Part shown: positions 308 through 27,721 of the stretch, piece by piece
Layout of the letters: every line of letters begins with the position of its first letter
Position numbering within the stretch: the first letter of the stretch is position 1
Source: an uncultured bacterium
GTDB lineage: Bacteria > Chlamydiota > Chlamydiia > Chlamydiales > FEN-1388
Reading direction: 5' to 3'
Assembly: GCA_964514655.1 (NCBI GenBank)
Contig: CAZEQY010000014.1
Location: 10,378-74,377 of the forward strand
DNA: 64,000 bases
Notes under the pieces: model-generated
Seen by the model: only the letters and a program-made list of their open reading frames with translations
Told to the model about the DNA's origin: nothing
Database searches by the model: none
Translations under genes and position numbers: made by a program

Positions 308-336
308 TTGACAAGTGGTGGTTAGGAATAGTACAC
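308..336 (+). promoter_or_regulatory. Promoter-like element TTGACA-N17-GTACAC upstream of family gene A1
   Basis: TTGACA at 308-313, a 17-nt spacer, then GTACAC at 331-336, 30 nt before ATG 367. The same architecture occurs upstream of A2 and A3. Confidence 0.45.
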
Positions 337-366
337 GATTTAGAAACTCTTCAATGAGGCAAGCTA

Positions 367-2799
367 ATGAGTTCTAGTAGTGTGTGTTCTTCGAGTGTAC
401 TGGCAGGAAGCTCTTCGCAGCAGCCGGGGGCGGTCTTTGGAGTAAAGCCGGAAGATAGGGATAAAATTGTAGCTACAAATGATCTTGCAGAGGGCCAAGC
501 CCGAGAGGTCTCTTCAAAGATTGCGGCGATTAATAAGCTTGTTACCGCGGCCATTGCTTCGTTGCAGGAAGTGGAAGATAAAATTAGATGGCGCCAAGTG
601 AGGGGTCAAGACCTTAAACATCTAAGTCCCGAGATAAAACGAATTGACGGGGAGCTTGATAAATGTGCACTCAGTTTGCATGATCCTGTCGCGGGGGTGG
701 ATACGGAGCTTTCTGCGCTCGATGATAAAAGCAAGATACCAGATCTTCTTGAACAAATTCAGGCTACAGAACGAAGATGCGCACTTGCCCAAAAAACGAC
801 AAAGCGGCTTTTAGCTTATACAGACTCTGCTAAAGTGTGCCAAGAGTATGGCACCTTTATGGATAGTAGAGGGCTCATTTCATCATTTTGTTTAAAGTTG
901 CAGGGGATAGGCCTTACAGACACTTCCCAGTGTCTTAGGGAGATTGATAGTATTATAACGGGGTGTTTTGAACTTGTTGCTCCCCAGCTTGCTGGTGACT
1001 TTACTGAAGCAAAACCCCTTGCTCAAAAGATAGGTGCTGTAAAGCTTGTAGAGCCAGAGCTAAAAAGTGAACGCCTTAAAGTTAGGGTGCGAAAAGATCT
1101 CTATAAACACCTTTTGGAGATCTGTTTGCAAGTTGTTAAAAAGACATACGTGCTTGATATTACCAAGTTTTCTTATAGAGAAGAAGTTCTTGAGGCACTG
1201 TTAAAGCGCCTTAGGCCTGTAGTGAATCCTGAAGATGTACAAGTTACAGATAGTGATGTTACTGCCCTTAAGGGAAAAGGGGATGCAAATTTTTACGTAT
1301 GGAGATATGCGAGCAGGTGGAGTTATGTGCCAGGCTATAAGGGTGATCGTACTTTAGGAGATTCCTTTGAACAAGATGTTGGCCAGCCACTAGCCGGTCT
1401 CATCAGTAAGCTGGCATCTAGGCCGGAAAATCTTCCATTCTATAGCGCCTGTCTTAATCGGCTTGAGCAGCGCTACATGCAAAAACTTAAAAGTCTTTCT
1501 GAGCGTGGGCCCGATATCCTCACCGACACAGTCTTTAACTATGCTTTAGGTCTAGAATATGCGTTTAGAGAAGCCCGCTCGCTTATAAAATACCATACAA
1601 AAATGGCCTCACAGCCTGCTGCGTCAGTATATAAAGCGTTAGAAAAATTACAGGTAGAGTATCGAGCTCTCAATCAAAATGGCGATCTAGGTCGTATTAC
1701 AAGCCTATATGAATCTCTTGTAGCCATGCAAGAAGTTGAAAAGGCTCGCCCCAAGCTTGCCAAAGGTGAACGTTTTAAAAAGCGCTTTGATAGAGCCTTG
1801 TGGCACCTTGCAGATCTTCTACGAAATATCCACGGCAAAAAAGACCCCGAGCTTTTAGCTTTAGTAGGAGAAGAGAAAGAGGTTGTAGCAAGAGTTTTAG
1901 GGCCAGCTACGATAGAGTTGCCAAAATCTACAATTATTTCGTTTATCGCAAAGCGTATTGTGGCCTACCTTGCACTATCTAGTCCTCGTCACGATATAGA
2001 GCTAGATATTGTGCTGCATGTGATGCGTGCTCATGTAGAAAAGGATCTTGGCGACCTTTTGAATAAGTATGAAGCAAAACGTAAGGCGTTGAACCTCAAA
2101 ACTCCTATCAAAGTGATAACAAATGCCCTTATAGCAGCTTCTGAAAAGACGGCATCTAGTGCCTATGCTAAAGCGTGGCAGAGATACTTTGAGTACCTCA
2201 GAAAGAATGCTGAAGAGCATGAGGTCTGCAAGGTGGTAGATGGGTTTGTAAAAGGTATTAATGGCTATCCGGTCATGTATCCGCCTGTTATGAACACAAG
2301 CATTGAGTTATGGCCTGTACATGATCCGGCTGAGTTTTTGAAAAAGCTTCATCGTGATGCAGACTGTGTAGATGCTATAGAATCTCAGAAAAAGCCGCTT
2401 CTTTTTAACTCGCTTGTCTTTCGCTTAGCGGCGTCTGCTCGTCATGCACGCTCGCCAACTGAGCAAGTACTTGCTCTAGAGAAGCTATATATACTTATCA
2501 CAAAAAAAGAATACACCCAGCTTGTAGCCTCTTTTGATGATCACACAAAGGAGATGATCGTTGAAAGCTCACTTGAAAAGATCATACCTACAAGCACAAA
2601 TTCTACCTTACTTATCGCAGAGGTTGAGCTAACACTACTTAAACCAAGATTTGAGGCGTACAAAGCTGCTAAAGTTCAAAGTAGAAATACAGTCCGTATA
2701 GAGAAAGCACTTATGAAGTTAATGAAGCTTGGATATATCGAAAAAGATGAAGCATGGCTTGCAAGTAAACAGGGAGGTATAGGCGCATGGAACCAGTAA
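367..2799 (+). CDS. Large uncharacterised paralog-family protein, module 1 gene A (810 aa)
   Basis: Long ORF with GAGG at 356-359 before the ATG. Ser-rich N-terminus MSSSSVCSSSVLAGSSS. Family motif 1 is FIAKRIVAYLALSSPRHDIELDIVLHVM and motif 2 is LLFNSLVFRLAASA. No domain recognised. Confidence 0.85.
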   Translation: MSSSSVCSSSVLAGSSSQQPGAVFGVKPEDRDKIVATNDLAEGQAREVSSKIAAINKLVTAAIASLQEVEDKIRWRQVRGQDLKHLSPEIKRIDGELDKCALSLHDPVAGVDTELSALDDKSKIPDLLEQIQATERRCALAQKTTKRLLAYTDSAKVCQEYGTFMDSRGLISSFCLKLQGIGLTDTSQCLREIDSIITGCFELVAPQLAGDFTEAKPLAQKIGAVKLVEPELKSERLKVRVRKDLYKHLLEICLQVVKKTYVLDITKFSYREEVLEALLKRLRPVVNPEDVQVTDSDVTALKGKGDANFYVWRYASRWSYVPGYKGDRTLGDSFEQDVGQPLAGLISKLASRPENLPFYSACLNRLEQRYMQKLKSLSERGPDILTDTVFNYALGLEYAFREARSLIKYHTKMASQPAASVYKALEKLQVEYRALNQNGDLGRITSLYESLVAMQEVEKARPKLAKGERFKKRFDRALWHLADLLRNIHGKKDPELLALVGEEKEVVARVLGPATIELPKSTIISFIAKRIVAYLALSSPRHDIELDIVLHVMRAHVEKDLGDLLNKYEAKRKALNLKTPIKVITNALIAASEKTASSAYAKAWQRYFEYLRKNAEEHEVCKVVDGFVKGINGYPVMYPPVMNTSIELWPVHDPAEFLKKLHRDADCVDAIESQKKPLLFNSLVFRLAASARHARSPTEQVLALEKLYILITKKEYTQLVASFDDHTKEMIVESSLEKIIPTSTNSTLLIAEVELTLLKPRFEAYKAAKVQSRNTVRIEKALMKLMKLGYIEKDEAWLASKQGGIGAWNQ

Positions 2800-4967
2800 G
2801 AATTCAGGGAGTTTCTCCTCGGCAGGCTCTCAAGGATTTTGATCAAAAATTGCGTCAGTGTGAGCAGAAGGTAAAAGAGGCCTTTGATAGCTTTACAGCT
2901 GTACATAGCGCCTTTTACTGGCGAATGCCTCAAGTTGATGGTATTGAAGCTAAGGTAATACTTGCGTGTGGTCTTGTAGATCAGCTTCGAAAAGATGATA
3001 TAGGCGAGCTTGATAGGGCGCTAAAAACAATCGAAGATCCGGATGTACTAAGTGACAGAATGGGCAAGCTGCAGCAGTTAGAAAAAAAAGCGCTGCTTCT
3101 TGAAACAAACTACAGGCGTATAGATGCGCTACGTATGAACAACTATCTAAAGGGCTGTACGAAAATTCATGAGGCTTGTCAAAGAGTACTTGCTGTTATA
3201 CATGGAAGCCAAAACCTGACCCAAAAAGTTGATGATATGGCGCGCGAAGTGCGCTGGTGTGTGCTTAGTATACAGCAAGATGTGCCGGAAAATCCTTTTA
3301 GGAAGATTCAAGAGCAGGCCCAAGAGATGGTTGACATCTTTACAGCTGCATGTGAGCAGCTTCAGGCAATGATCGATCAATGTGATGAGGCAACGCGCGA
3401 CGCTCACAACACAACCTTTAGCCCGTCAAAAGAATCTATACAGCAACTTCGACAACAGCTGCCTCCACAACAGCAAGTTGAAGTGCCACAAGAGGCATTT
3501 GCAGAATATGAGAAGACACATGGGCCATCCTGGACAGGTTGGGCCTTATCTAAGCTTGGTTTATTCCAGCTTCCCGGTGAAGATGGAAAATTTTTGCAGC
3601 AGGTACATGCTGCAAGAAGTAAAGGGTCTCATGATGATCTTATAAAAACTATTGATTTGATCCTGGCTGGAGATGCAAGTACGCTTCTTGATCGCATTGC
3701 AAAGCATGCTCATGTGCTTGCAGCACTTAGGCAAGATCTTGATGCTATTCGTACAAGGGTAGGGCTACAAATATCCCTTCGAGACGCCGTGAACTGCTTT
3801 ACTTTTGAGCTTGTAGAACAGCAAGCGATGCTTGATCATATTGCAGCTCTTGCAAAAGAGGCTTCACTTGCAAAATATAAAGCTCACGCTGCTTTTAGGG
3901 CTGCACTTAGTGCTCGGACGGTGTTTACAATGTTTACAGTCGGAAGTCAAATAGCAGCTTCTAGCAACACTGTTCAAGAGTTATATAGAAAGCATGCAGA
4001 TAGAGCACTTGTCCTTCAGGGGCCTGATGATATACTAACGCGGATTACCCGAGTCTTATATCTACCTGTAGCATTACATGATATAGGAGAGCTAGAGCTT
4101 GCACTACATGGCAGCATGCTACCTAATGATCAAGAAAGCAAGGTGATTATAGATGCCTATAAGGTGAAGTGTACTCCTCAAGTTCTAGAGCTTGCAAAGG
4201 CGGAGCTTCCCTTTATACAACAGCCTTTTAGCGTGCTTCATCTTGCAGAGGCCTGGCAGCGAGTGGTTGAATTTAGTGCTCAGGAGCAAGCTCCAAAGTA
4301 TCTTACCGAGTTTTTGTACAGTAAAATGGCTTTAGGGCCCTATTTGCTTAGCAAAACCGAAGAGCCGAACACAGCTCAGGAAGAAGGGCTATTAGCAAGT
4401 ATAAATATAGCAGCAAGCGAAATGCAGGGTGACATAAAGGCAAACAAGGAGCGACTTCTTGAGAGCTTTTTAGTTCGCGCCATTGGCGCCTACCTTTTTG
4501 CAAGAGATCCTCGCATTAAAGTGCGCTATCAAAAGCATGTTCAGGATGTGCTTGAGCTTGATATGTATAAAGACTTAAAGGCAAATTTTAGGGCTACTAC
4601 ATTGCGCCTTATCACTGAATTTACCGTACGTAGGCCGGCTGCAGCAGGAAGATGCGAGAAAGAGCTTTTTCTTGCAGGCCCCGCATCACGATACCTCTCT
4701 GAAGGTTCAATCAGCGATAGCGAAGGGCTTATAGCAGACACGCTATGTCGTATGATACAGGATGAAGAAGGTCGTCAAAAGCCTGAGCAGATCGCTACGA
4801 CATTCTTTATAAATAGAACGGGCCAAGCGGAATTTAACTCCTGGTATCACAATACCTATCAGGTTTACTTGCAAGCCGAAATGCAAAGGGATAATCAATC
4901 ATCAGCAAAAGCTCAAAAAGCAGCCCGCAAAGTCGCGCTCTTTAGCGCTGCTTTTGGAGCTATTTGA
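2787..4967 (+). CDS. Large uncharacterised paralog-family protein, module 1 gene B (726 aa)
   Basis: ATG 2787 overlaps the A1 stop (2797-2799) by 13 nt, with GGGAGG about 10 nt upstream. N-terminus MEPVRIQGVSPRQALKDFDQKLRQ resembles B3 and A3. Motif 1 is FLVRAIGAYLFARDPRIKVRYQKHVQDVL. Confidence 0.85.
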   Translation: MEPVRIQGVSPRQALKDFDQKLRQCEQKVKEAFDSFTAVHSAFYWRMPQVDGIEAKVILACGLVDQLRKDDIGELDRALKTIEDPDVLSDRMGKLQQLEKKALLLETNYRRIDALRMNNYLKGCTKIHEACQRVLAVIHGSQNLTQKVDDMAREVRWCVLSIQQDVPENPFRKIQEQAQEMVDIFTAACEQLQAMIDQCDEATRDAHNTTFSPSKESIQQLRQQLPPQQQVEVPQEAFAEYEKTHGPSWTGWALSKLGLFQLPGEDGKFLQQVHAARSKGSHDDLIKTIDLILAGDASTLLDRIAKHAHVLAALRQDLDAIRTRVGLQISLRDAVNCFTFELVEQQAMLDHIAALAKEASLAKYKAHAAFRAALSARTVFTMFTVGSQIAASSNTVQELYRKHADRALVLQGPDDILTRITRVLYLPVALHDIGELELALHGSMLPNDQESKVIIDAYKVKCTPQVLELAKAELPFIQQPFSVLHLAEAWQRVVEFSAQEQAPKYLTEFLYSKMALGPYLLSKTEEPNTAQEEGLLASINIAASEMQGDIKANKERLLESFLVRAIGAYLFARDPRIKVRYQKHVQDVLELDMYKDLKANFRATTLRLITEFTVRRPAAAGRCEKELFLAGPASRYLSEGSISDSEGLIADTLCRMIQDEEGRQKPEQIATTFFINRTGQAEFNSWYHNTYQVYLQAEMQRDNQSSAKAQKAARKVALFSAAFGAI

Positions 4968-7710
4968 TAGTGACATCGTTAAACTGGAATTTTTGACAAA
5001 GGTCAAAATAGAGATCCGCAGCAAGCCCCAGCCAGCTGTAGTGCGTTCTATGATTATTGGGGTTATGTCTCAAAAAGCACTCTCTTGCACCATCTACGAG
5101 TGCTTGGGCCTCTTCATATGCGCGTGGTTTTTTAGAGCGGTCAAATGATCCTTCCTTTGCTAAAAGAACAAGGAACTCTTTATATTTTGTAAGTACCTGA
5201 TTCCAGAACTTTAGCAAGCCTTGATCTGAGCGGTGAGCAAGCTGTGCGCCATATATCCCGCCTATGGTATCTCCTTGGAGGGTAAAGAGCTTGTGTATCA
5301 GTAGTTCCATGTTGGTAGTGCCAAATGCAGCTTGCCACTGAGTATGCGTCTTGCTGGCAGGGTCTAGATACTCTTTCACAAGACCTGTGAGTATAAATTC
5401 ACCATGTTTAGTTTGTACGGGAGCGTCGCTCATAAATTGGTCTACAACCCATTTTCTTAGGAGGTCAAGGCCTTCTCTATCATTAGGTAGTTGATCACGC
5501 TCAAGAGCATCAAGTCGCTGCACAAGCTGTAGCGTGCTTTCTTGATCTTTAGCAAAGATGCTTGAAACAAGGAGGCGATAAAAGACTTTTGCGCGCACCT
5601 TGCGCATTTTTACTTCTAGAGCATCAGGTAGGGCTTTTTCAACTACCATTCCTTGTAGCTCAAGTTCAAGCCTTACTTTGCTTGTGATGGTGCTGAGTTC
5701 TTTTTCGCTTTCAAGCTTTTCTATTGAGATAGTGTCATACTCCTTATAAAAGCTCGGAAGGAGGTTGTCGTCGTTTGCAAAGAGAGGGTCTAGTTCATGC
5801 TTTAGCCACAAAAATCGCTCAAGAAGCATCTGAGCTTGGGAGACCTCTGCCAGGCGGAATTTAGCTTCACAGTAGGAGAAGACGCGTTCTAGAAAGCAAC
5901 ATCCCGGATTTCTTCTCAAGATAACAAGAAGGCTTACCATCTTGCCAAAAAGTTCATGGTTTGTGTCAAAGCGTGTCGTCTGGACGTAGTGAGTATAGAG
6001 TTCATGTAGGCTTTGATTAAACCGTAAGGTAGTCAAAAAGGCATCTTGATAAAGCTCATCGTATTTTAGTTTGTAGATGATCATGTCAAGCTCTGGATTA
6101 TAGTCTTGCGACTGGAAGTTTCTGCATCTTATAAACCCTTTCATAAGGCAAGACACAATCCTATCCGGCAAACAGTTTCCTGGGTCTTCGTCGGGACTCC
6201 TAAATTCAGCTAGGGGCGTTTGTAGCAAAAGCTGCCCAGCAACTTGACGCTCTTCTAGAGTAAGTGTGAGTGTTTTGGCGCCAAACCTTGCAAGGATATC
6301 TCTGGCAACTTCATAGAGAGTGTTTTGGATGGGGCGAGCGTTTAGTGTTTTTTGTAGTAGGCAAGCTGCGTTTGTTGCCCTTGTGAGCTTTTCTAGAGTT
6401 TGAGCAGGCTCCAAGAATTCGATAAGTTGCATGCATCCTTTTGCATAAGGGCGAAAGCTCCTAGTTGAAAGGCTTTTACATTGGTGCAGATCTTCTCGCA
6501 GTTCAACTACTTTTGAAATAAGCTTAGCAACAAAGTACCTACCGGCATGCACGCGCTTAGAATAGCGCAGTTTTTCTAAGTGATCTCGCTGCTCGTATAT
6601 AGCCTCTTCAAGACCGTCGAGCAGTACCTCAAGTTCTTTTACGTCCCGATTACCTTTTTGCTGTAAGCCGCAAAGGGCTTCTGTCCTAGCTTGTATTTCT
6701 TTTTGGAGCTGAACCAAGGCTTTAGATATGCTTCGTAAGCTGTCGACCTCTGTTCGTATCTCTTTGTAGATGTAATCTGCTAGGAGCTGATTATTACGAA
6801 AGTTATCCTTGGCTTCTAGTTTTTCACCTTGCCACTCAGCGATATACCTTGCTACGCTCTCCTCGACAGCTTTACGCTCTTTTCTCTTTGGAAGATAGGG
6901 GGCTAAAGACTTTTCTAGATTTTCTATTTCCTGTTTAAGAGTGCCAACTTGGCGTGCAGTGTCTTCGGGATTTGCCGGAGTAGAAGGGGTGTTTGACCAT
7001 ACCCATGATATCAATCCACCTCTATTTTGGGAAACTGAAAGCCTTGCAAGTTGCGCTGCAGCATCATCAGCAGGAGTGATGAAAGAGTTTGCAGTATAGG
7101 CGATGAACTGTAAAAGCTCTTCATAAAGTAGGGCTGTTTGGTGAGCGATCACTGTTTGGCTATGAAGCGTTCCTGTTTCTTCTTCAATTACTTTTTTAGT
7201 TTCTTGAAAAGTGCGCCTTAAGCCCATTATCTTTTCGCTAACGCTCATCTTTTCATTGGCTTCAAGTTCTTGGCAAAACCTCTTTTTCGTTTTATAGCAC
7301 TCTAACGCTCTATGATGGTGTCCGCTTCCTAGAATATAGCCAAGGTTTTGTCGCTGTTTATCTAGAATTGTGGTTCTAATCTCAAGCTGTATAAGGGCCT
7401 TAAAGGCTATTTGAGACCTCTTGGGATCATCTAAAAAGGCAATTTCTTGGATCCGCATTTGTGCGGCTTTCCAGAGTTGTGAAACTTGGATAAATGAATC
7501 ATCAAGAGCTTTCTTTTTTGCAAGGTGCTCTTTTTCGATAGAGCCTATTTGGCTTTGGCGCTGAAAAAGAAACTGGGCGGCTTCCTTCAGCTCACGCGCA
7601 TATACCTCAGTTGCTTTAACTGCAGTTTCAAAACACTCACTTGCTTTTTGATCGGCAAGTACAATGTCTTTATCGCAGGTAAAAACAACCTTAGCATTGA
7701 CTGGATCCAT
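4960..7710 (-). CDS. Large uncharacterised paralog-family protein, module 1 gene C (916 aa)
   Basis: Long ORF whose start lies 4 nt after the adk stop on the same strand. Motif 1 is DRIVSCLMKGFIRCRNFQSQDYNPELDMIIYKLKYDELYQDAF. Motif 2 is KVFYRLLVSSIFAKDQE. C-type signature is TQWQAAFGTTNMELLIHKLF. Confidence 0.85.
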   Translation of the reverse strand: MDPVNAKVVFTCDKDIVLADQKASECFETAVKATEVYARELKEAAQFLFQRQSQIGSIEKEHLAKKKALDDSFIQVSQLWKAAQMRIQEIAFLDDPKRSQIAFKALIQLEIRTTILDKQRQNLGYILGSGHHHRALECYKTKKRFCQELEANEKMSVSEKIMGLRRTFQETKKVIEEETGTLHSQTVIAHQTALLYEELLQFIAYTANSFITPADDAAAQLARLSVSQNRGGLISWVWSNTPSTPANPEDTARQVGTLKQEIENLEKSLAPYLPKRKERKAVEESVARYIAEWQGEKLEAKDNFRNNQLLADYIYKEIRTEVDSLRSISKALVQLQKEIQARTEALCGLQQKGNRDVKELEVLLDGLEEAIYEQRDHLEKLRYSKRVHAGRYFVAKLISKVVELREDLHQCKSLSTRSFRPYAKGCMQLIEFLEPAQTLEKLTRATNAACLLQKTLNARPIQNTLYEVARDILARFGAKTLTLTLEERQVAGQLLLQTPLAEFRSPDEDPGNCLPDRIVSCLMKGFIRCRNFQSQDYNPELDMIIYKLKYDELYQDAFLTTLRFNQSLHELYTHYVQTTRFDTNHELFGKMVSLLVILRRNPGCCFLERVFSYCEAKFRLAEVSQAQMLLERFLWLKHELDPLFANDDNLLPSFYKEYDTISIEKLESEKELSTITSKVRLELELQGMVVEKALPDALEVKMRKVRAKVFYRLLVSSIFAKDQESTLQLVQRLDALERDQLPNDREGLDLLRKWVVDQFMSDAPVQTKHGEFILTGLVKEYLDPASKTHTQWQAAFGTTNMELLIHKLFTLQGDTIGGIYGAQLAHRSDQGLLKFWNQVLTKYKEFLVLLAKEGSFDRSKKPRAYEEAQALVDGARECFLRHNPNNHRTHYSWLGLAADLYFDLCQKFQFNDVTIK

Positions 7711-7714
7711 TGCA

Positions 7715-8386
7715 TCACGAACGTATAGCGGTTAATAGGGCATTAAAGACCTGTTCTTGGTCTTGTTCGCCATCGATATTGATGACGCTACTTGTGCCTT
7801 TATAAAAGTCTTCCACAGGCTTTGTCTGGCTGTAGTAGGCTTTAAGGCGCTCTTGTACAACTTCGCTCGTATCGTCAGTACGCTGGATGAGCAAGGTGTT
7901 GCATTTGTCACAAAGATCCTCTTTTTTAGGAGGCTTTGAATCTATGTGATAGATACTATTACATTGAGGGCAGCTTCTTCTGCCTGTGATGCGCTTTAGT
8001 ACTTCTGCATCAGATACTACGAGGTTGCACACAAAAAGCTTGTGCGGGTGTTTGCTTAGATAGGTCTCTAGGGCTTGAGCCTGCGCCACAGTGCGGGGTA
8101 CGCCATCTAGTAAAAAGCCATTTTGGCAGTCTGGCTTTTCAAGGCGGTCAAAGAGCATATCTAGAGTTACGCTATCGGGAACAAGTTTTCCCGCATCCAT
8201 AAATTCTTTTACCTTAAGACCAAGCGGTGTTGCATTTTTTATGTTATAGCGAAAGATATCGCCCGTTGAAATGTGAGGAAGGTTGAGCGACTGCGAAAGG
8301 CGTACTGCCTGCGTGCCCTTGCCTGATCCCGGAGGTCCCAGCAAAATGATAACCTGTTTAAAATCGCTAGATGCAGCTTGTGACAT
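7715..8386 (-). CDS. adk: Adenylate kinase with a zinc-binding lid
   Basis: P-loop IILLGPPGSGKGTQA, ISTGDIFR, and a CPQC...CDKC lid. I prefer the start at ATG 8386 (MSQAASSDFKQVIILLG), the canonical distance from the P-loop. The ORF stays open upstream to 8431 and 8488. Confidence 0.9.
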   Translation of the reverse strand: MSQAASSDFKQVIILLGPPGSGKGTQAVRLSQSLNLPHISTGDIFRYNIKNATPLGLKVKEFMDAGKLVPDSVTLDMLFDRLEKPDCQNGFLLDGVPRTVAQAQALETYLSKHPHKLFVCNLVVSDAEVLKRITGRRSCPQCNSIYHIDSKPPKKEDLCDKCNTLLIQRTDDTSEVVQERLKAYYSQTKPVEDFYKGTSSVINIDGEQDQEQVFNALLTAIRS

Positions 8387-8451
8387 ACAAATAAAAATCC
8401 CTGCTAATATACTCAAAATATACTGTTTCATCGCATTCATAGTACGAGGTT

Positions 8452-8479
8452 TTGACATTAAATGCCAGTCGAGGTACAC
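8452..8479 (+). promoter_or_regulatory. Promoter-like element TTGACA-N16-GTACAC upstream of family gene A2
   Basis: TTGACA at 8452-8457, a 16-nt spacer, then GTACAC at 8474-8479, 31 nt before ATG 8511. Confidence 0.45.
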
Positions 8480-8510
8480 AGGTATCATAACTTCTTTAGG
8501 GGTAATTGGT

Positions 8511-11045
8511 ATGAGTAGTCGGGTTGCATCGTCGGCACGAGAGGATGATTCGTCAAGGCTTGTAAATCCTGCAAGGATAGCTCCTGAGCATGCAGGTAAG
8601 TTTTGTCAGCGATGGGACGTTGTCGTGCGAGGTGTCACAAAACTTGCTAAAGAGATTGTCCAGGTGGGTAATACCCTGCAGTCGCAGGTTGCTACAATAG
8701 ACAAAATACAGCATGCAATTAAGTGGCAAACAGCAACGCGAGATGATCTAAAGCGCTACGCAAGCCAGCTTTCTGATTATGATGGCGATCTTATACGATC
8801 TAAGGAACTTCTTTCAGGTAATAGTAGTGGGCTACATAAGTCTATTTCCGTTTTGCCCAATAGGGATGAGTTTCTTCATCTATTAGCGCTTTTAGAGAAT
8901 ATGGAAGTAGAGCTTTTCTTTGCACAAAAGAGTGTGCGCGAGCTTTTATCTCTTTGCTCTTCTAAGACCTATGTAGAGCTTTATAGCCAGGCAAAAGAGA
9001 TACGCACATTTGACGCTGCAGTTACAGCTACAAGTTCTCAAAAAGCGATCATTGCCTTTAACAGCAAAGTTACAGAAGTTGTTGGCGTTTTGTCTCGTCT
9101 TAAAATGCCCGAAGATAGTGATAAAGTGAGGCGAGCTTGTTTGGAGCTTTCTTTAGATACGCTTGAAGTCTGCAAGGCGCGGATTTGCCTTGTAGAGGGA
9201 GCTGAAAATAAAGATCTATTTCGGGAAGTGAAAGCTCTTGCTGAGAGGCATATCGAATCATCAAATCAAGAACTTACAAAGCTTGCTAAAGCAAAGCTTA
9301 AGCCTCGAGGAGATCCTGTAGAGGTATCATTAGAGCAGATTCCCTCCTCGGCCGATAAGGATCATGACTTTTGGAAAAAGGCGCCGGGATTTACGCACAC
9401 GAGATACCAGAAAAAGTGGGACTACCAGTCTACAGGCGGTCTTGGGGAAAAATTAATGAAAGATTTAGGCTTACGGTTGCCATCGTTCATTTTACAGCTT
9501 GAAAAGCGTCTTGTAGCGTTAAGTCAGGGTAGCGGTATTCCTGAAAATGAGGTAGACCGCCTTATAGCAACGCTAGAGCGCATGCAAACAGTTTTTGATG
9601 AGCATAAGGGCGAGTTGTACATGACGGGCTATGATAAGGTCTCTTTGACCCTTCATAACTACTTTAGTGCCATTAGATTTGAGTTAAAAGAAGCCTACCG
9701 GCGGCTGAAATATCTATATAAGTGTACAGAACCTGCCCGCTTTACTGTTTTTAAGGCTATGGGAGAGATGCGAAAGTGTTTTGGCAATCTTGAACAAACA
9801 CCCGCTACACATGCGTTGTTTCCTGCAGCAAAGGCAATGCAAGAAGCCCTTGTTGTTGCGCCCTCAAAAGAGGCAAAAAAACCACTTGATGTCTATATCA
9901 GAACAACAATAGAGCTATTAAATGAAGTGCACGCAAGACAAGATGCTGTGCTTCTAACACTTACGGAAGATGAGGCTCTTGTGCCGGATAAGCTCTTTAC
10001 GGCAGCATCACTTGAAGGTCTTTATAGGCAGGGTGAAGAAAGAAGCGGCATTCCGATAGCGCTTATGTCCTATCTTGCAAAAGAGATGATGCACGTTCTT
10101 TATCTGCCGCAACTTCCAAAAGATTTTATTCGCACGCTTATGCTAGAGCTTGTTCTTTATTTTCTTCGGAATAAACCTGAGCTAGAAAACACACTCGAAC
10201 AGCACCCAAGATTTAAAGAGATATATAATGAATATACCGCCGCGATACAAGCAACACGAGGCCTTCTTGCAAAAGCTCTAGAGCCTGCAGTGAATGTCGT
10301 AATTAGCTCACTTCGAGTACAGGGAGTAGCTGACTATGCAAGAGCATCAGAGCTTTACTTTGAATTTGTTACTGATAGCTCTAAGTATATGCCCGAAGAG
10401 CTTTTAGTCGATGTAAAGCTAGCTCTTTTTGCAAAGTGTAAATTTTCTTACTTTGATAGCGTGCGAGATGACAGCATAGATACATGGAAACTTGAGGAGT
10501 TTACTTCCTTTTATAAAAAGCTGACGACTGTATGCAATAGTCTTCGCTATAAGCTCACAGGAATTAGCGATCACATGCGTGAATGCATAGTTTTTGAATC
10601 AGTGATGCTTAGGGTGCTTTCTGTAGCGCTTTATTCCAAAACTGAAGCCGGAAGAAATATGGCAAAATCACTTATTCAGGCAGTGTGTAACGAAGAGCGC
10701 TATCAGCCCTATATGAAGATGCTTTCTGATCAAATCTGCCTGCTTTTTACTCGTAATGCAGTGAGCAATGTGATAGGGGCAAAAGTGTATACCCTTTCTT
10801 TGTTTGAGAAAACACTTCTCTTAAAAGGCCCTGTAAGGGCGTTTTTAGAGAAAGATGAAACTGACCATACAGATACTCAGGTTGATCTTATGCTTGCTAA
10901 GCTTATATACAGTGAGCAAAAGCTGCCACGTGATCAGCGTCTATTTTCGGCTGCCTGTCCTAAGCGGGTAGAGGGTTATGTAGAGCGGATGAAAGATCTA
11001 GAGCAGGGAGATCCTGTGCGACAAATTGGCGAGGGGGAGTTATGA
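8511..11045 (+). CDS. Large uncharacterised paralog-family protein, module 2 gene A (844 aa from ATG 8511)
   Basis: The ORF track opens at 8283, but that extension overlaps adk and the promoter motif. ATG 8511 follows AGGGG and gives the Ser-rich N-terminus MSSRVASSAREDDSS, like A1. Motif 1 is IALMSYLAKEMMHVLYLPQLPKDFIRTLMLELVLYFLRNKPEL. Motif 2 is CIVFESVMLRVLSVALYSKTE. Confidence 0.85.
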   Translation: MSSRVASSAREDDSSRLVNPARIAPEHAGKFCQRWDVVVRGVTKLAKEIVQVGNTLQSQVATIDKIQHAIKWQTATRDDLKRYASQLSDYDGDLIRSKELLSGNSSGLHKSISVLPNRDEFLHLLALLENMEVELFFAQKSVRELLSLCSSKTYVELYSQAKEIRTFDAAVTATSSQKAIIAFNSKVTEVVGVLSRLKMPEDSDKVRRACLELSLDTLEVCKARICLVEGAENKDLFREVKALAERHIESSNQELTKLAKAKLKPRGDPVEVSLEQIPSSADKDHDFWKKAPGFTHTRYQKKWDYQSTGGLGEKLMKDLGLRLPSFILQLEKRLVALSQGSGIPENEVDRLIATLERMQTVFDEHKGELYMTGYDKVSLTLHNYFSAIRFELKEAYRRLKYLYKCTEPARFTVFKAMGEMRKCFGNLEQTPATHALFPAAKAMQEALVVAPSKEAKKPLDVYIRTTIELLNEVHARQDAVLLTLTEDEALVPDKLFTAASLEGLYRQGEERSGIPIALMSYLAKEMMHVLYLPQLPKDFIRTLMLELVLYFLRNKPELENTLEQHPRFKEIYNEYTAAIQATRGLLAKALEPAVNVVISSLRVQGVADYARASELYFEFVTDSSKYMPEELLVDVKLALFAKCKFSYFDSVRDDSIDTWKLEEFTSFYKKLTTVCNSLRYKLTGISDHMRECIVFESVMLRVLSVALYSKTEAGRNMAKSLIQAVCNEERYQPYMKMLSDQICLLFTRNAVSNVIGAKVYTLSLFEKTLLLKGPVRAFLEKDETDHTDTQVDLMLAKLIYSEQKLPRDQRLFSAACPKRVEGYVERMKDLEQGDPVRQIGEGEL

Positions 11046-13210
11046 CAGTAGATGTTCGATTAGTAGAGGCTCAAAGGGCGCTTTTTTGGCCGGATGAGCG
11101 GGCTCCATCTCTAGATCAACTTCGAGATGATTTACGCGTGGTGCGAGAAGAGGCTTATGCCAACATTCCCCCAAGAAGCGGCCAAGAGCTTGTTTCGTAT
11201 ATGCAGCGAGTGAGGGTTATACAGGGAGACTGCATGCTTTTGCAAAATTGCCTTACGCTTTTAGAGTCTATGAACCCTGCAAACTATACGGCAATGTATG
11301 CGAACATTGGTGCTCTTGTCACAATACTTCAAGAAGTATTGAATCCAGAAGTTTTAGTTGCTCATAAGGTGGAGCGGCTTAAGGCACAAAATCCCGAAAT
11401 ACAAAACAACTGTCCATACTATCTAGCAAAAGAGCTCTTTCTTGTTTTAGAAAAGGCGCTAGAAAAGGCTCTAGAGCAGGCAAGACACCTTCCGGAGCAA
11501 GATCCATCTAAAACGGAGCTTGAAGAGCAGGTAAGGACGATTAGTCAACGTAAGGAACTATTGCAGGGACAGCTTCCAGCCTTTGAGCGACCAGTGTGGG
11601 ACTATCAAGCTCAGCGTGTTGGCGATTTAGTAGAAGAGCTTAAAACCGCTTATGATGCTTCCTATTCATTTTGGAAAGGAGCACCTTCAGGAACGTGGTT
11701 AAGCTACAAAACTCCGTTCTTTAAATGGTATATACAGACAGGTCTTCATGGCGTGACGTTTGAGAAGGATACCGGACAAATCGTAGGCGGCCTTCAAAAA
11801 AAGATCGAGGCAACGTTTCAGAAGCTTATGCGTCTTGAATATACTCAAGAACAGTATGAGCAAGAGCTTAATCGGCTTTTGTCAGTTTTTATTTCGTTTA
11901 ACGAATTTTTTGATGCTAGTTATAATGAGATATTTGATAAAGAGCCGGATGCTCTCTATGTGCAGCTTCTAAAGTATGCAAATTTTGTACGCCTTACGCT
12001 TTATTCTATCAGAAATGGCCTGCTCACGCTCAAGGGCTTTGCAACACAAAAAGCCTTTTCAATTTTTGCCGCTATGAAAGCTTGTAATGACTATCACGTA
12101 GCCCCTCCATCATGGCAAAAGCTTGTCTGTCTTTTCACCGCAGCAAAAGCTCTTGATGATATTGTTTTGGACATTCGTGAAAATGAGTTCTTGGTGTATT
12201 CACATCGCACAGCAAAAAAAGAACTTAGACGTGCAGCACAAGAAGATGTTGCATTAGATGCTGCTGAGCAAGGTGTATGGGAGCGCATGATGCACGGCAA
12301 GGCGCACGTTTCAGAAGAGTGTGTGCAAAGCTATACTCTAAAACGTATCATCGAGGTGCTCTACCTGACAGATATAAGAGATATCGATGTGCCCTTTGAG
12401 CTTTTTATCCATACCCTAAAGCAAGATCCGGCCTATCAACAAATAGATATTCTCAAACAGGCTATAGAGGCCTACGACAGGCAATTTGCCCGGGAGCGAA
12501 ACAGCGAGAGCCTAGCAAAGGCGTGCGAGCTTCTTAGCGGCATTTTTTCACTAGAAGAGCGCGAGTATGACCTTGAGTGCTACGTAAGGATCTTTATTCG
12601 TTGTACCGAATTTACAAATGCCAATAGCCTCTCTCTCTTTCTTTTTGCAAGACTAGACGCCCATATAGATGGAAAATATACCCCAATAAAGGACGATCTT
12701 CGAAGAATGGTGGCAACCGCACTGTATGGCTCCAATGTAGATGAGCAAAAGCGAGCTCAAGAACAAATCTATAAAGCCTATGAGCAAGGGCGCATAAAAG
12801 CCTTGGCGCCTGATCTTGAGACGCTTTTTTATCTAAATACCATGCGCAAACTTGTGCGTAAAGAAAAGGTGCATAAAGAAGAAGTGCAGCAGCTAGCAAA
12901 GGGCCCAATAGCAGAGTTTAAGCAAACAAAGAAAGTGAACGATCGTAGACTCTTTGACACCTTATATACCCTTATTCGCGATGAGCGTAAAAAGAAAGAG
13001 GCTGATAGAACGCTTACAAGAGAACTGGGTCGAGAGGTGGAAGCGTGGTTTGAACAGTATGAGCGTCTTTTAGCATCTTCAGAAATCAACCACGCTGTAG
13101 CAGCTAAAGATCGCGAAATTGAACTCACTAACGACCTTGGCTATACCGGGTTTAAGGCCTGGCAGACTCATGTAAAGCAGTCTATTGAACTATCTAAAGC
13201 CGTTAAGTAA
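11042..13210 (+). CDS. Large uncharacterised paralog-family protein, module 2 gene B (722 aa)
   Basis: ATGA start/stop overlap with A2 (11042-11045), with GGGGGAG upstream. Motif 1 is YTLKRIIEVLYLTDIRDIDVPFELFIHTLKQDPAYQQ. Motif 2 is DLRRMVATALYGSNVDE. Confidence 0.85.
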   Translation: MTVDVRLVEAQRALFWPDERAPSLDQLRDDLRVVREEAYANIPPRSGQELVSYMQRVRVIQGDCMLLQNCLTLLESMNPANYTAMYANIGALVTILQEVLNPEVLVAHKVERLKAQNPEIQNNCPYYLAKELFLVLEKALEKALEQARHLPEQDPSKTELEEQVRTISQRKELLQGQLPAFERPVWDYQAQRVGDLVEELKTAYDASYSFWKGAPSGTWLSYKTPFFKWYIQTGLHGVTFEKDTGQIVGGLQKKIEATFQKLMRLEYTQEQYEQELNRLLSVFISFNEFFDASYNEIFDKEPDALYVQLLKYANFVRLTLYSIRNGLLTLKGFATQKAFSIFAAMKACNDYHVAPPSWQKLVCLFTAAKALDDIVLDIRENEFLVYSHRTAKKELRRAAQEDVALDAAEQGVWERMMHGKAHVSEECVQSYTLKRIIEVLYLTDIRDIDVPFELFIHTLKQDPAYQQIDILKQAIEAYDRQFARERNSESLAKACELLSGIFSLEEREYDLECYVRIFIRCTEFTNANSLSLFLFARLDAHIDGKYTPIKDDLRRMVATALYGSNVDEQKRAQEQIYKAYEQGRIKALAPDLETLFYLNTMRKLVRKEKVHKEEVQQLAKGPIAEFKQTKKVNDRRLFDTLYTLIRDERKKKEADRTLTRELGREVEAWFEQYERLLASSEINHAVAAKDREIELTNDLGYTGFKAWQTHVKQSIELSKAVK

Positions 13211-15820
13211 GCACCATGAGACTATATTGTTGTTCGTCACTGTGTCGGGTAGAGCTTTTGGTAGCTCCTGACGACTTTTTACGTAGATGGCTTGGGCTTC
13301 TAGGAGTAGACGTTCTTTTTCCTGTTTCAGAGCTTTTTGGGCTCGATACGCTAATGGGATAATAGCCTTCCATAGTTCTTTCCCAAAGGTGCCTCGTTTT
13401 ACGTCAACAAGAACATCCATCCTCACATTCGCTTCAGGTTGGAGACTAACGTACTGCAAGAGGGCAAATTCCATAGTAGCCATACCTACTTGCCTTCTCC
13501 AAAATTCGCGTTCCTTTGGCTGTTGAATGTATTCTTTAAATAGCTTGTCTAAAAGCTCCAGTCTGCCGCTGTAAGAACCTTCTGCAAACTGCTCAAGAAG
13601 CCACTTGTCAAAAAGAAGACGAAGAGGACTATCTTCTGCCGGAAGATCATCGACGTGTGTGTGTTTGGCATATTCAATAAGCTTGGCAGTTGCGTTGGCA
13701 TCCTCATCATATAGGCTTAAGGCAAGGGCGTTATAGAGGGCTGCATCTTTTTCTTCGTCTTGAAGCCCATACAGAGGCTTTTCGGTGAGTACTAAAGTAG
13801 CGCTTTTACTATAGGCTGGAAGCTGAAGTGATTCTTCGATCAGCGTGAATGAAGTTTCTAAGCGTCTTGTAAGCCATCCGATGCGTGATGAATTGATGTT
13901 TTTTAGTAACACCTTTGCTTGTACATAGCGAAAAACTGCTTCTTTCTTGCCGTTTGTTGTTGCAAGGCAGGAGAGTACATCTGTTATTGCTTGAAGTTCC
14001 TCATGTGAAATTGTCTTTTGTTCATCATATTCTCTCAGGAGGACTTTCAAGGTTTCGTTGTGGTAGCAGGCATCACTAAAGGCTTTAGAATAGAGTGGGT
14101 CTGTAGAAAGTATATGAATAACAGTTTCACATTCAGTATCTTCACTTTTTTCATCGGAATAGTAAAGATGTGCGATAAGACGCTTTTCAAGATAGTGAAG
14201 TACATCTTCTGGTAATGCAGGTGCGCGAAGTGAGTTTTCGCCATGAGGAAAAGGTGTTCTCCTGTAGATTGAATTTGGCACTTGCTTTTCGCTTTCAGTT
14301 AGCTCGAGTGTTTTTCTGCCTGTTACAGAAAGTATATCTTGAAGAACCTCAGTACTTAGCCGCTGTATCCGATCGTGAAAGCGCTTATTTTTTGCAGGAT
14401 CTACTAAAGAGCATACTGCTTTTGTTGCGTTAAGAAGGTGGGTGATGGATCGTACTTTCAGATACTGGATAGTGTCAAGAAGTGCACGTACACTAGGTTT
14501 CATTGATCCAGTGGCTAAAAGAGCAAAATCCTGCAAGTAGGTGCGAGCTTCAGCGAGTTTTGCAAACTGTTTTGCCACATAAGACCAACCAGCACGTACG
14601 CTTGGAGTAAAGGCTATTTCTGATAAGGCCCTTCTTTGTTTATGGATCTCTAGCTCGATAAATGCAAGAAGTTGCTTATACTGCCCAAGTTCATCCTCAA
14701 GAGTTGCAAAACAGGTCATAAGTGATCCCTTACAGCAAACTCTAATTCGAGCCTGGATGAGTTTGACAAACTCCTGTAGGGCTTTAGCTATACTCGTAAG
14801 TTCAGAGATTTCAGGGGAGATATTTCTATATGGGCCCACAAGAGGGGCTGTTGCACCAATTTGTCCACCGCGAAATTTATCATACGATTCAAGGCTTTCA
14901 GATTTTGCTCTCTTGATAAAAGCAGCGATAAATTCCTGACTCCAGGCAGGGATAGCGTGCTGGGGTATTGGAAGTGCATGCTTTAGTGCTTCAGCGGTTG
15001 CTTGCTCCTCTAGCCGTTGAAGATGAGCGCGCTCTTGGCTCTCTTCTGGCAACGATTCACGTCTACTTAACGCAGCAAAGGCGATATATCTAAAAAGCTC
15101 TTCGACAAGTAGTGTTATCTCTTTCAAGATGATTGGCGCTTTTGTTCCAAGTTCTTGTTTTTTTGTGGCGATATGCTGCTTTACCTCTTCAAAAAGCACT
15201 CCAAGAGAGCTTTCGGTGGCATCTTTTGCTTCTACTTTTCGAAGCGTGTCTTTAAAGAACTTAAAGCTTTTTTCATAGCTTTCAGAATCTATTACTGTGA
15301 GAAGTTCAGCAGCTTTATGCTTCAGCGGGTGCTGCAAAAACTCTATCTTAAAAAGACGCCTTACGGCTTTTGCGATGTGCGCATCCTCTTCGATAATAGC
15401 GATATCTTGATAGCGATTTTGAGCTTTTTGTGCATCAGCTAGCATCCTGCTGTTAAGATCTCTAAGCTCTTTTGTCCAGGTTTCATGGGTTTGTACGACA
15501 ACATCTTTTTGTACGCGCCTTTCATGAAGGCCCTGAAATTTTTGGTTAAGGTCTGTGGCATATTCACCCTCAGTAGCTTTAAGCACCTTGCCAAGTGTAT
15601 CAAGTACTGTGTCATCAGAGGGGGGGCTTTTGTCTTTTGCGTAGGTAAACCGACGATGTGCTTTAGGGCCTTTTTCAATGTTTGCTTCGACACGAATTAT
15701 CATTAATGGAGCATCCGGGTCTTCAGTTTCAGATAAGGCTGCAGCATTTACAAAGTCTTTAAACGATTCGTGAGAGGATTGTAATTGCATCCGCATTGTT
15801 GCATCGTAAACACCAAACAT
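13190..15820 (-). CDS. Large uncharacterised paralog-family protein, module 2 gene C (876 aa from ATG 15820)
   Basis: ATG 15820 is preceded by GGAGGA 7 nt upstream. The track start at 15898 lies inside the A3 promoter motif. Motif 1 is DVLHYLEKRLIAHLYYSDEKSEDTECETVIHILSTDPLYSKAF. Motif 2 is AALYNALALSLYDEDAN. C-type signature is EFWRRQVGMATMEFALLQYV. Confidence 0.85.
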   Translation of the reverse strand: MFGVYDATMRMQLQSSHESFKDFVNAAALSETEDPDAPLMIIRVEANIEKGPKAHRRFTYAKDKSPPSDDTVLDTLGKVLKATEGEYATDLNQKFQGLHERRVQKDVVVQTHETWTKELRDLNSRMLADAQKAQNRYQDIAIIEEDAHIAKAVRRLFKIEFLQHPLKHKAAELLTVIDSESYEKSFKFFKDTLRKVEAKDATESSLGVLFEEVKQHIATKKQELGTKAPIILKEITLLVEELFRYIAFAALSRRESLPEESQERAHLQRLEEQATAEALKHALPIPQHAIPAWSQEFIAAFIKRAKSESLESYDKFRGGQIGATAPLVGPYRNISPEISELTSIAKALQEFVKLIQARIRVCCKGSLMTCFATLEDELGQYKQLLAFIELEIHKQRRALSEIAFTPSVRAGWSYVAKQFAKLAEARTYLQDFALLATGSMKPSVRALLDTIQYLKVRSITHLLNATKAVCSLVDPAKNKRFHDRIQRLSTEVLQDILSVTGRKTLELTESEKQVPNSIYRRTPFPHGENSLRAPALPEDVLHYLEKRLIAHLYYSDEKSEDTECETVIHILSTDPLYSKAFSDACYHNETLKVLLREYDEQKTISHEELQAITDVLSCLATTNGKKEAVFRYVQAKVLLKNINSSRIGWLTRRLETSFTLIEESLQLPAYSKSATLVLTEKPLYGLQDEEKDAALYNALALSLYDEDANATAKLIEYAKHTHVDDLPAEDSPLRLLFDKWLLEQFAEGSYSGRLELLDKLFKEYIQQPKEREFWRRQVGMATMEFALLQYVSLQPEANVRMDVLVDVKRGTFGKELWKAIIPLAYRAQKALKQEKERLLLEAQAIYVKSRQELPKALPDTVTNNNIVSWCLLNGFR

Positions 15821-15869
15821 AGCCGTCCTCCATTTTCTTAACTGTGTATCACAAGAGCTATTAAAATGC

Positions 15870-15898
15870 TTGACTTTACATCTCGTCAAGGAGTACAT
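15870..15898 (+). promoter_or_regulatory. Promoter-like element TTGACT-N17-GTACAT upstream of family gene A3
   Basis: TTGACT at 15870-15875, a 17-nt spacer, then GTACAT at 15893-15898, 27 nt before ATG 15926. The -35 hexamer is half of a palindrome cTTGAC...GTCAAg that also offers TTGACG to the divergent C2 gene. Confidence 0.45.
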
Positions 15899-15925
15899 CG
15901 TTAAGCAATAGAAAGAGGAAATTCT

Positions 15926-27592: not shown

Positions 27593-27603
27593 AGCTAGCC
27601 TCC

Positions 27604-27641
27604 TTAAAAAAAGTAAGCGGTAGAATGTTATTCTACCGCTT
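27604..27641 (-). terminator. Rho-independent terminator downstream of tRNA-Pro
   Basis: A 12-bp perfect stem (27615-27626 with 27630-27641) and a 3-nt loop, followed on the minus strand by a T7 run (plus-strand A-run at 27606-27612). Confidence 0.6.
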
Positions 27642-27646
27642 GGTGA

Positions 27647-27721
27647 TCGGAGCAGAGGGATTTGAACCCCCGACCTACTGCTCCCAAAGCAGCCGCGCTA
27701 GCCAAACTGCGCTATGCTCCG
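27647..27721 (-). tRNA. tRNA-Pro (anticodon UGG), CCA not encoded
   Basis: Manual cloverleaf: CGGAGCA-TA-GCGC-AGTTTGGCTA-GCGC-G-GCTGC-TTTGGGA-GCAGT-AGGTC-GGGGG-TTCAAAT-CCCTC-TGCTCCG-A. The anticodon loop reads TTTGGGA. Closely resembles bacterial proM-type tRNA. Confidence 0.85.

Follow-up and report, generated by a model that had tools for sequence, protein, structure and literature searches.

The closest described counterparts of the element treated here are the chlamydial promoters of sigma-66 (RpoD), with the pattern TTGACA-N17-TATAAT. In C. trachomatis, the mapped sigma-66 promoter of rs1 (rpsA) reads TTGCCT-N17-TACACT, and the mapped promoter of clpC is listed with TATATG as its -10 box, so that T at -7 is not obligatory (PMC2743672). 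The chlamydial protein Scc4 (CT663) inhibits promoters of the -10/-35 type and spares those with an extended -10, and GrgA acts via region 2 of sigma (PMC7403470). Environmental chlamydiae have been reported to carry sigma-66 and sigma-54 only, sigma-28 being reported lost (PMC4652624). Here we describe a two-part element, TTGACw followed 16-17 nucleotides (nt) later by a block with the core sTAmAy (s, G or C; m, A or C; w, A or T; y, C or T), which precedes the three genes A1, A2 and A3 in a 64,000-nt stretch of DNA, hereafter the window, from a chlamydia-like metagenome-assembled genome (MAG) obtained from activated sludge (GenBank assembly GCA_964514655.1, contig CAZEQY010000014.1, positions 10,378 to 74,377 of the forward strand). 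Each site is probably the core promoter of an operon formed by an A gene and the B gene that follows it, read by sigma-66 and composed of a consensus -35 and a conserved, weak -10.

Compared with the sigma-66 consensus, the A sites share the -35, a spacer of 17-18 nt (19 nt once) and the bases T-12, A-11 and A-9 of the -10 hexamer, as well as the intergenic position, the short leader and the Shine-Dalgarno sequence; they differ in having C for T at -10, C or T for A at -8, and a near-invariant G at -13. Their -10 box is moreover kept across paralogs and genomes, whereas ordinary promoters drift. The likeness to rs1, which is a chlamydial promoter with a mapped start, lies in a TACAC-type -10 located 17 nt after a TTG-type -35; rs1, however, keeps T at -7, has a weaker -35, and is a single housekeeping promoter rather than the signature of a gene family. 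A further parallel is provided by Domman and Horn (2015), who described lineage-specific promoter motifs before lineage-specific, host-interaction-like genes; neither TTGACA nor GTAC occurs in the main text of that study (PMC4652624), and the MAGs that carry the present gene family appear to be more recent than it.

Three sites with a common architecture

The original prediction had placed a bipartite, promoter-like site upstream of each A gene, and the coordinates, spacers and gaps to the ATG (30, 31 and 27 nt) are exact in all three cases (Table 1). Each of the three start codons is preceded by a Shine-Dalgarno-like sequence, GAGG, AGGGG or AGAGGA. Over both strands of the window, the pattern TTGACW-N16/17-GTACAY has four matches against 0.05 expected. 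The fourth, inside yidC, takes rank 3 of 127,910 positions with the cross-trained matrix described below and has no sizeable open reading frame (ORF) downstream; it is probably a chance match outside the A-B system, and it may make an antisense transcript.

The pattern had been picked post hoc and was submitted to a blind test on the three 100-nt regions upstream of the A genes. Pairs of 6-mers, each with at least five invariant columns and lying 8-25 nt apart, were accepted where their spacing differed by at most 1 nt between regions and their position relative to the ATG by at most 5 nt. On the real regions, the test returned the TTGACW and GTACAY blocks and nothing else; a comparable shared pair arose in 2 of 20,000 shuffles, and in none of the 1,540 real triples formed by the sequences upstream of 22 non-A genes in this window. 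Outside the two blocks the three regions are unalignable, as had been predicted. Since the A proteins are only 20-23% identical in pairwise comparison, neutral intergenic DNA would by now be fully randomised between them, and common descent without selection is insufficient to account for the blocks. The two-part element is real and under selection.

Table 1. Components of the element in the window and before A homologues of other chlamydial assemblies, with the genes that they adjoin (aa, amino acids; numbers between hexamers are spacer lengths in nt).
Feature	Sequence	Position	Strand	Remarks
Site 1, -35	TTGACA	308-313	+	A1-B1 promoter; rank 2 by foreign-trained matrix
Site 1, second block	GTACAC	331-336	+	N17 after TTGACA; 30 nt to ATG 367
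Site 1, -10 hexamer	TACACG	332-337	+	G(-13) and first five -10 bases form GTACAC
Site 2, -35	TTGACA	8452-8457	+	A2-B2 promoter; rank 5 by foreign-trained matrix
Site 2, second block	GTACAC	8474-8479	+	N16 after TTGACA; 31 nt to ATG 8511
Site 2, -10 hexamer	TACACA	8475-8480	+	
Site 3, -35	TTGACT	15870-15875	+	A3-B3 promoter; rank 1 by foreign-trained matrix
Site 3, second block	GTACAT	15893-15898	+	N17 after TTGACT; 27 nt to ATG 15926
Site 3, -10 hexamer	TACATC	15894-15899	+	
Fourth exact match	TTGACATGACATTTTGCTGGATGTACAT	33829-33856	+	antisense inside 60KD_IMP domain of yidC
L002, A1 orthologue	TTGACA-16-GTAAAC			30 nt to ATG
L001, A2 orthologue	TTTACT-17-CTACAC			34 nt to ATG; C1-adk synteny kept
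L003, A3 orthologue	caaggaGTAAAC, block GTAAAC			31 nt to ATG; contig ends before -35
L004	TTGACA-17-GTACAC			32 nt to ATG
L005	TTGACA-16-GTACAT			34 nt to ATG
L008 (9941)	TTGACA-17-GTACAC			31 nt to ATG
L009	TTGACT-17-GTACAC			33 nt to ATG
L011	TTGACA-17-GTACAT			59 nt to called ATG
L012	TTGACT-17-GTATAC			32 nt to ATG
L008 21257, register variant	TTGACT-17-GTTACAT			
L010 9935, register variant	TTGACA-16-TTATACA			
A1		367-2799	+	operon partner B1 2787-4967; 13-nt overlap
A2		8511-11045	+	844 aa; operon partner B2 11042-13210; 4-nt overlap
A3		15926-18010	+	operon partner B3 18014-20251; 3-nt gap
C2		13190-15820	-	876 aa; ATG at 15818-15820

Recurrence before A homologues of other assemblies

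For comparison, the DNA around A-type homologues was taken from other chlamydial assemblies; one locus, L007, was left out, its gene being frameshifted and its promoter off the contig. Orthologues in the closest MAG (GCA_041912355.1; loci L001, L002 and L003) show 38-49% protein identity, and the remaining homologues are 22-30% identical to the A proteins of the window. In six of these assemblies the element is found, at eight exact or near-exact foreign sites and at three variants (GTAAAC, GTTACAT and TTATACA), and the distance from block to ATG is 27-34 nt in 10 of the 11 aligned sites. An unbiased count of 5-mers is topped by TTGAC: of the 14 regions upstream of A genes, 12 contain it (the maximum in shuffles being 10), at -56 to -66 in 11 of these and at -88 in L011. 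A weight matrix of the two blocks, trained on eight foreign sites only, places the window sites of A3, A1 and A2 at ranks 1, 2 and 5 of 127,910 positions.

The gene on the upstream side varies between sites: it may be a partial, unannotated minus-strand ORF (at the left end of the window), adk, C2, a prmA-like methyltransferase, MgtE, an acyl-CoA ligase/acetyltransferase or an ankyrin (Ank) gene; the element thus travels with the A gene. It also appears to fill the sole room available for a promoter, for example in L004, where the entire divergent intergenic region measures 89 nt. The pattern of recurrence indicates that the element is conserved by selection across paralogs and across seven assemblies, the window included.

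Specificity against neighbouring genes

Neighbouring non-A genes, adk among them, carry canonical -10 boxes of the TGTATAAT type. The adk promoters read TTGTCA-...-TGTGTATAAT in L004, TGTGTATAAT in L001 and TGAGTATATT in the window; they are located upstream of 13624 in L004, upstream of 4524 in L001, and at 8388-8420 on the minus strand of the window. Other non-A promoters of the same DNA have TTGACA-17-TAAGAT, or TTGACA followed after 16 nt by TATTTATAG; elsewhere between genes, TTGACW stands before TAAGAT, TATTTA or sequences like them. The RNA polymerase of these organisms evidently uses ordinary TATAAT-like boxes, which makes the A promoters a distinct class; within the same genomes, the adk promoters are of the TGTG-TATAAT type, whereas those of the A genes appear to be -35-dependent.

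The TTGACW/GTAmAy element is absent upstream of the C-type paralogs, and the motif is likewise absent before the housekeeping neighbours. With its recurrence in the six assemblies, this bears out a promoter-like element specific to A genes; the wider proposal of the original prediction, that whole modules of genes are co-regulated through it, finds no support, because the convergent C genes lack the motif.

In a metagenome scan, the pattern GCTTGACAT-N16/17-GTACACCAT gave 13 matches, none of which adjoins an A-type gene; 10 of the 13 lie inside ORFs of contigs that are mostly higher in GC content, and the longer ORFs downstream (at least 60 aa) have no match to the A family. These matches are at chance level and say nothing about a regulon.

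Register of the -10 hexamer

Over the 11 aligned sites, the -35 extends to a consensus of cTTGACwt, and the second block, 16-17 nt after it, has the column counts G(10) T(11) A(11) C(9) A(11) C/T(11). Its invariant core is sTAmAy, represented by GTACAC, GTACAT, GTAAAC, GTATAC and CTACAC; of the conserved, non-TATAAT element originally described as GTACAy, the conservation thus stands and the strict sequence does not. The block is preceded by a T-poor purine tract, and a T occurs three bases after it in 8 of the 11 sites. A more distant homologue, L014, has no TTGACA, but carries TGTGTATAGAT 32 nt before its ATG, that is, at the same distance, and TGTG stands directly before TATAAT in the adk promoters and before TATAGA in L014. 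Because of the position of TGTGTATAGAT in L014 and the TGTG-TATAAT of adk, sTAmAy is best read as a G at -13 followed by the -10 hexamer TAmAyn. In this register T-12, A-11 and A-9 are invariant, the T and A being found in all 11 aligned sites and in the three variant ones. The promoters of this clade seem in general to have a G at -13, immediately ahead of the -10 hexamer; the TG of the usual extended -10 lies one base further upstream than this G.

The -35 matches TTGACA in five or six of six positions at the three window sites and at 10 of the 11 foreign sites whose -35 is on the contig. The spacer to TAmAyn measures 17-18 nt at 12 sites and 19 nt at the L008 site 21257, which fits the 17 ± 1 nt of group-1 promoters; T-12 and A-11 of a group-1 -10 are in place, and T at -7 is not. 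Since the -35 and the spacing are of the group-1 type, since the -10 of rs1 is TACACT (PMC2743672) and since environmental chlamydiae are reported with sigma-66 and sigma-54 only (PMC4652624), sigma-66 is the factor that we infer. That the one sigma factor originally proposed for the three sites is other than the main one becomes unlikely on the same grounds of -35, spacing and sigma-factor content.

Several points weigh against a sigma-66 promoter in this register. A T at -7 is one of the two key bases of the sigma-70 -10 box; it is found in 0 of 14 sites, against about 4 expected from background. An alternative register, mAynnT, located 3 nt downstream, would place a T at -7 in 9 of the 14 but lengthen the spacer to 19-20 nt. 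A canonical-looking TTAACT-18-TAAAAT is found before A3 (15838-15867), and in L011 GGGTATAAT lies nearer to the ATG than the element; going by these sequences, second promoters are possible in both places. Finally, the sequencing runs in which the locus is found are of activated-sludge DNA only, with no RNA run among them. The GGGTATAAT box of L011 (640-728), which stands between the motif and the called ATG, may represent a second promoter or be a sign of another start codon.

With TAmAyn as the -10, transcription should start at an A about 7 nt past the hexamer, giving a leader of 20-25 nt that carries the Shine-Dalgarno sequence. Both registers predict a start within a conserved A-rich patch (TAGAAAC, CATAAC or TAAAAC). 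Patches of this kind, ending in AAC (TAGAAAC, CATAAC, TAAAAC, CTAAC), are seen 6-10 nt after sTAmAy, at the predicted start, namely at 342-349 and 8486-8491 of the window and in L002, L001, L004, L008 and L009.

Other promoter classes and sources of conservation

The aligned sites were also compared with other classes of promoter and signal. An extended -10 (TGn-TATAAT) does not apply, as there is no TG at -15/-14 and the bases before the G are purine-rich, with no conserved T. The -24/-12 pattern of sigma-54, TGGCAC-N5-TTGCW, is absent. Promoters of the extracytoplasmic function (ECF) sigma factors are marked by an AAC within the -35 and by CGT or GTC within the -10; the A sites have TTGAC as their -35, where a G precedes AC at 10 of 11 sites and AAC does not occur, and the GTA of their second block is preceded by A (7 of the 11 sites), G (2), C (1) or T (1). 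The consensus of chlamydial sigma-28, TAAAGwwy-N11/12-ryCGAwrn (r, purine; n, any base), has no counterpart in the aligned sites. A leader or structured RNA element was rejected, as the blocks are not complementary, the sequence between them is not conserved and the short intergenic regions leave no place for a promoter further upstream; so was a role of GTAC as a methylation or palindromic site, as the variants GTAAAC and CTACAC lack GTAC or the dyad.

A promoter of the MerR type, which combines a spacer of 19-20 nt with a dyad operator, was rejected because the spacers are neither conserved nor palindromic. The spacer of A3 contains an inverted repeat, TTGAC-N10-GTCAA (15870-15889), formed by the -35 of A3 and a minus-strand TTGACG (15889-15884). 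This minus-strand hexamer belongs to TTGACG-18-TTTAAT, a candidate divergent promoter of C2 located 39 nt before the C2 ATG. The repeat, found at A3 only, is better explained by the -35 of this C2 promoter; the A3 and candidate C2 promoters would then overlap back to back.

The conservation might alternatively stem from a regulator that overlaps the -10, either a repressor or a class II-like activator, with sTAmAy and the purines before it serving mainly as its operator; the conserved bases would then reflect the specificity of the regulator and not that of sigma. In keeping with this, the conservation is tighter than promoter strength needs (C-10 in 9, A-9 in 11 and y-8 in 11 of 11 sites, and never T-7), the purine tract is free of T at -4 and -3 relative to the G, and the motif is confined to one gene family. 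However, the block comprises just 6-9 nt, without dyad or direct repeat; its variants GTAAAC, GTATAC and CTACAC retain exactly those positions that a -10 requires (T-12, A-11 and A-9); L014 carries a plain extended-type -10 in its place; and the only nearby gene for a helix-turn-helix protein, of the LuxR type, is 13 kb away, with no link seen. An activator or repressor acting at the element is possible, but we consider it unlikely that the block is chiefly an operator.

An alternative sigma factor that recognizes a -35 like TTGACA and a -10 of GTAmAC would be expected to leave a conserved non-TATAAT block with an invariant G-T-A and no T at -7, as is seen here, and the -10 boxes CGTA and GTT of ECF factors bear a faint similarity to the block. 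Yet the -35 is that of group 1, exact and at 17 ± 1 nt; the AAC of ECF promoters (GAC here) and a C before GT are absent; neither sigma-54 (TGGCAC-N5-TTGC) nor chlamydial sigma-28 fits; the G at -13 is shared by the canonical promoters of the same DNA (TGTGTATAAT); and the factors reported from environmental chlamydiae are sigma-66 and sigma-54 only (PMC4652624). We therefore regard such a factor as very improbable. That the shared hexamers are due to chance, to a pattern chosen post hoc or to a relic of duplication can be dismissed with near certainty, as far as sequence analysis allows: the pattern was indeed defined after inspection of three regions, and one exact match (33829) does lie inside yidC, but comparable pairs hardly arise from shuffles and never from real triples, neutral DNA would be randomised at the identity of the paralogs, and the element recurs independently in six other assemblies, whose matrix recovers the window sites.

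Start codons

The shorter start codons originally chosen for A2 and C2 are the correct ones by comparison with database proteins. Translated from the ATG at 8511, A2 has 844 aa, matching P0002, and its N-terminus, MSS..., aligns with that of the orthologue P0004; the longer call is a 920-aa ORF with a TTG start (8283-11045), which overlaps adk. C2 starts at 15818-15820 and not at 15898, P0071 being 100% identical over 876 aa, and this short start leaves a divergent intergenic region of 105 nt that contains the A3 promoter. The database product of L004 (3551-6538, 995 aa) is called from an ATG that falls within the promoter spacer, the true start being likely at 3596; that of L005 (5505-8495, 996 aa) is called from a point 324 nt upstream of 5829, the likely ATG. 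Judged from the position of the element, the database calls of A-type genes (in L004, L005 and the window) are over-extended at their 5' end.

The A, B and C genes

Ten large ORFs within 367-24831 of the window form one very diverged family, in which the B and C types are more distant still than the A proteins are from each other. As the A and B genes of each pair overlap or lie next to each other (Table 1), the element would drive A-B operons. None of the ten ORFs has a match in Pfam or NCBIfam. When 1.84 billion proteins are searched with a profile of A1-A3, only 77 cluster representatives come up; word-based homologue searches with A1, and with an alignment of 24 sequences, return A1 itself only. 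A wide alignment of the family, used to look for related loci, shows no conserved stretch, and the pair alignment of A2 and P0004 as a query returns one such locus. The AlphaFold model of A1 is of good confidence (pLDDT, the predicted local distance difference test, 84; pTM, the predicted template modelling score, 0.73) and all-alpha, with about 33 helices; A1 has no sequence match in the PDB, and its best fold match there has a template modelling (TM) score of 0.14 at most. The family is one of large, all-alpha proteins with a fold without known match, restricted to a few chlamydial MAGs, and the A genes probably serve in interaction with the host.

In at least five assemblies (L004, L008, L014, L001 and the window at 4960-8488), the genes are arranged as A-B> <C-adk, in many cases with a prmA-like methyltransferase next in line. 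The convergent C gene, lying directly behind adk, is probably co-transcribed with it. In L007 (1-2375) the A3-like gene (P0010) appears frameshifted, and an upstream ORF of 55 aa in another frame encodes the conserved N-terminal segment of the AVQWRTA type. Elsewhere in the window, the gap of 121 nt between lgt and a glycosyltransferase-like gene (about 27593-27713) resembles a tRNA gene by eye (…GGAGCAGAGGGATTTGAACCC…).

Implications for the control of the family

As far as the DNA alone can tell, what is new here is a promoter of the sigma-70 type whose -10, conserved and specific to one gene family, has no T at -7; the -35/-10 architecture is known. A promoter with a perfect -35 and a crippled -10 would depend strongly on the contact of sigma region 4 with the -35, and initiation would be limited at DNA opening. 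A factor acting on RNA polymerase or on the -10 could then switch the A family as a group, without a dedicated sigma factor; the candidates are inhibition of -35-dependent promoters by an Scc4-like protein, assistance at sigma region 2 from a GrgA-like one, supercoiling, or a protein that binds the DNA. A combination of perfect -35 and poor -10 is the class expected to be most responsive to factors like Scc4 and GrgA, purely by analogy with those of Chlamydia, and group switching via factors of this kind is a hypothesis.

More speculatively, sTAmAy, the purine tract and the A-rich start might together be the signal of a dedicated, as yet unknown switch, a reading that strikes us as rather doubtful. 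Such a switch, whether a regulator that binds DNA or a factor remodelling sigma-66, could turn on the all-alpha family as one regulon, for example at one developmental stage.

Knowledge of how environmental chlamydiae control their genes is scant. If the box is merely a weak -10, it would neatly illustrate how selection can favour a weak promoter. The weight matrix could define the regulon in whole-genome scans, and the signature corrects start codons, several database calls beginning inside the promoter. Kept in seven assemblies, and between paralogs with only about one residue in five in common, it offers a handle on lineage-specific gene switching.

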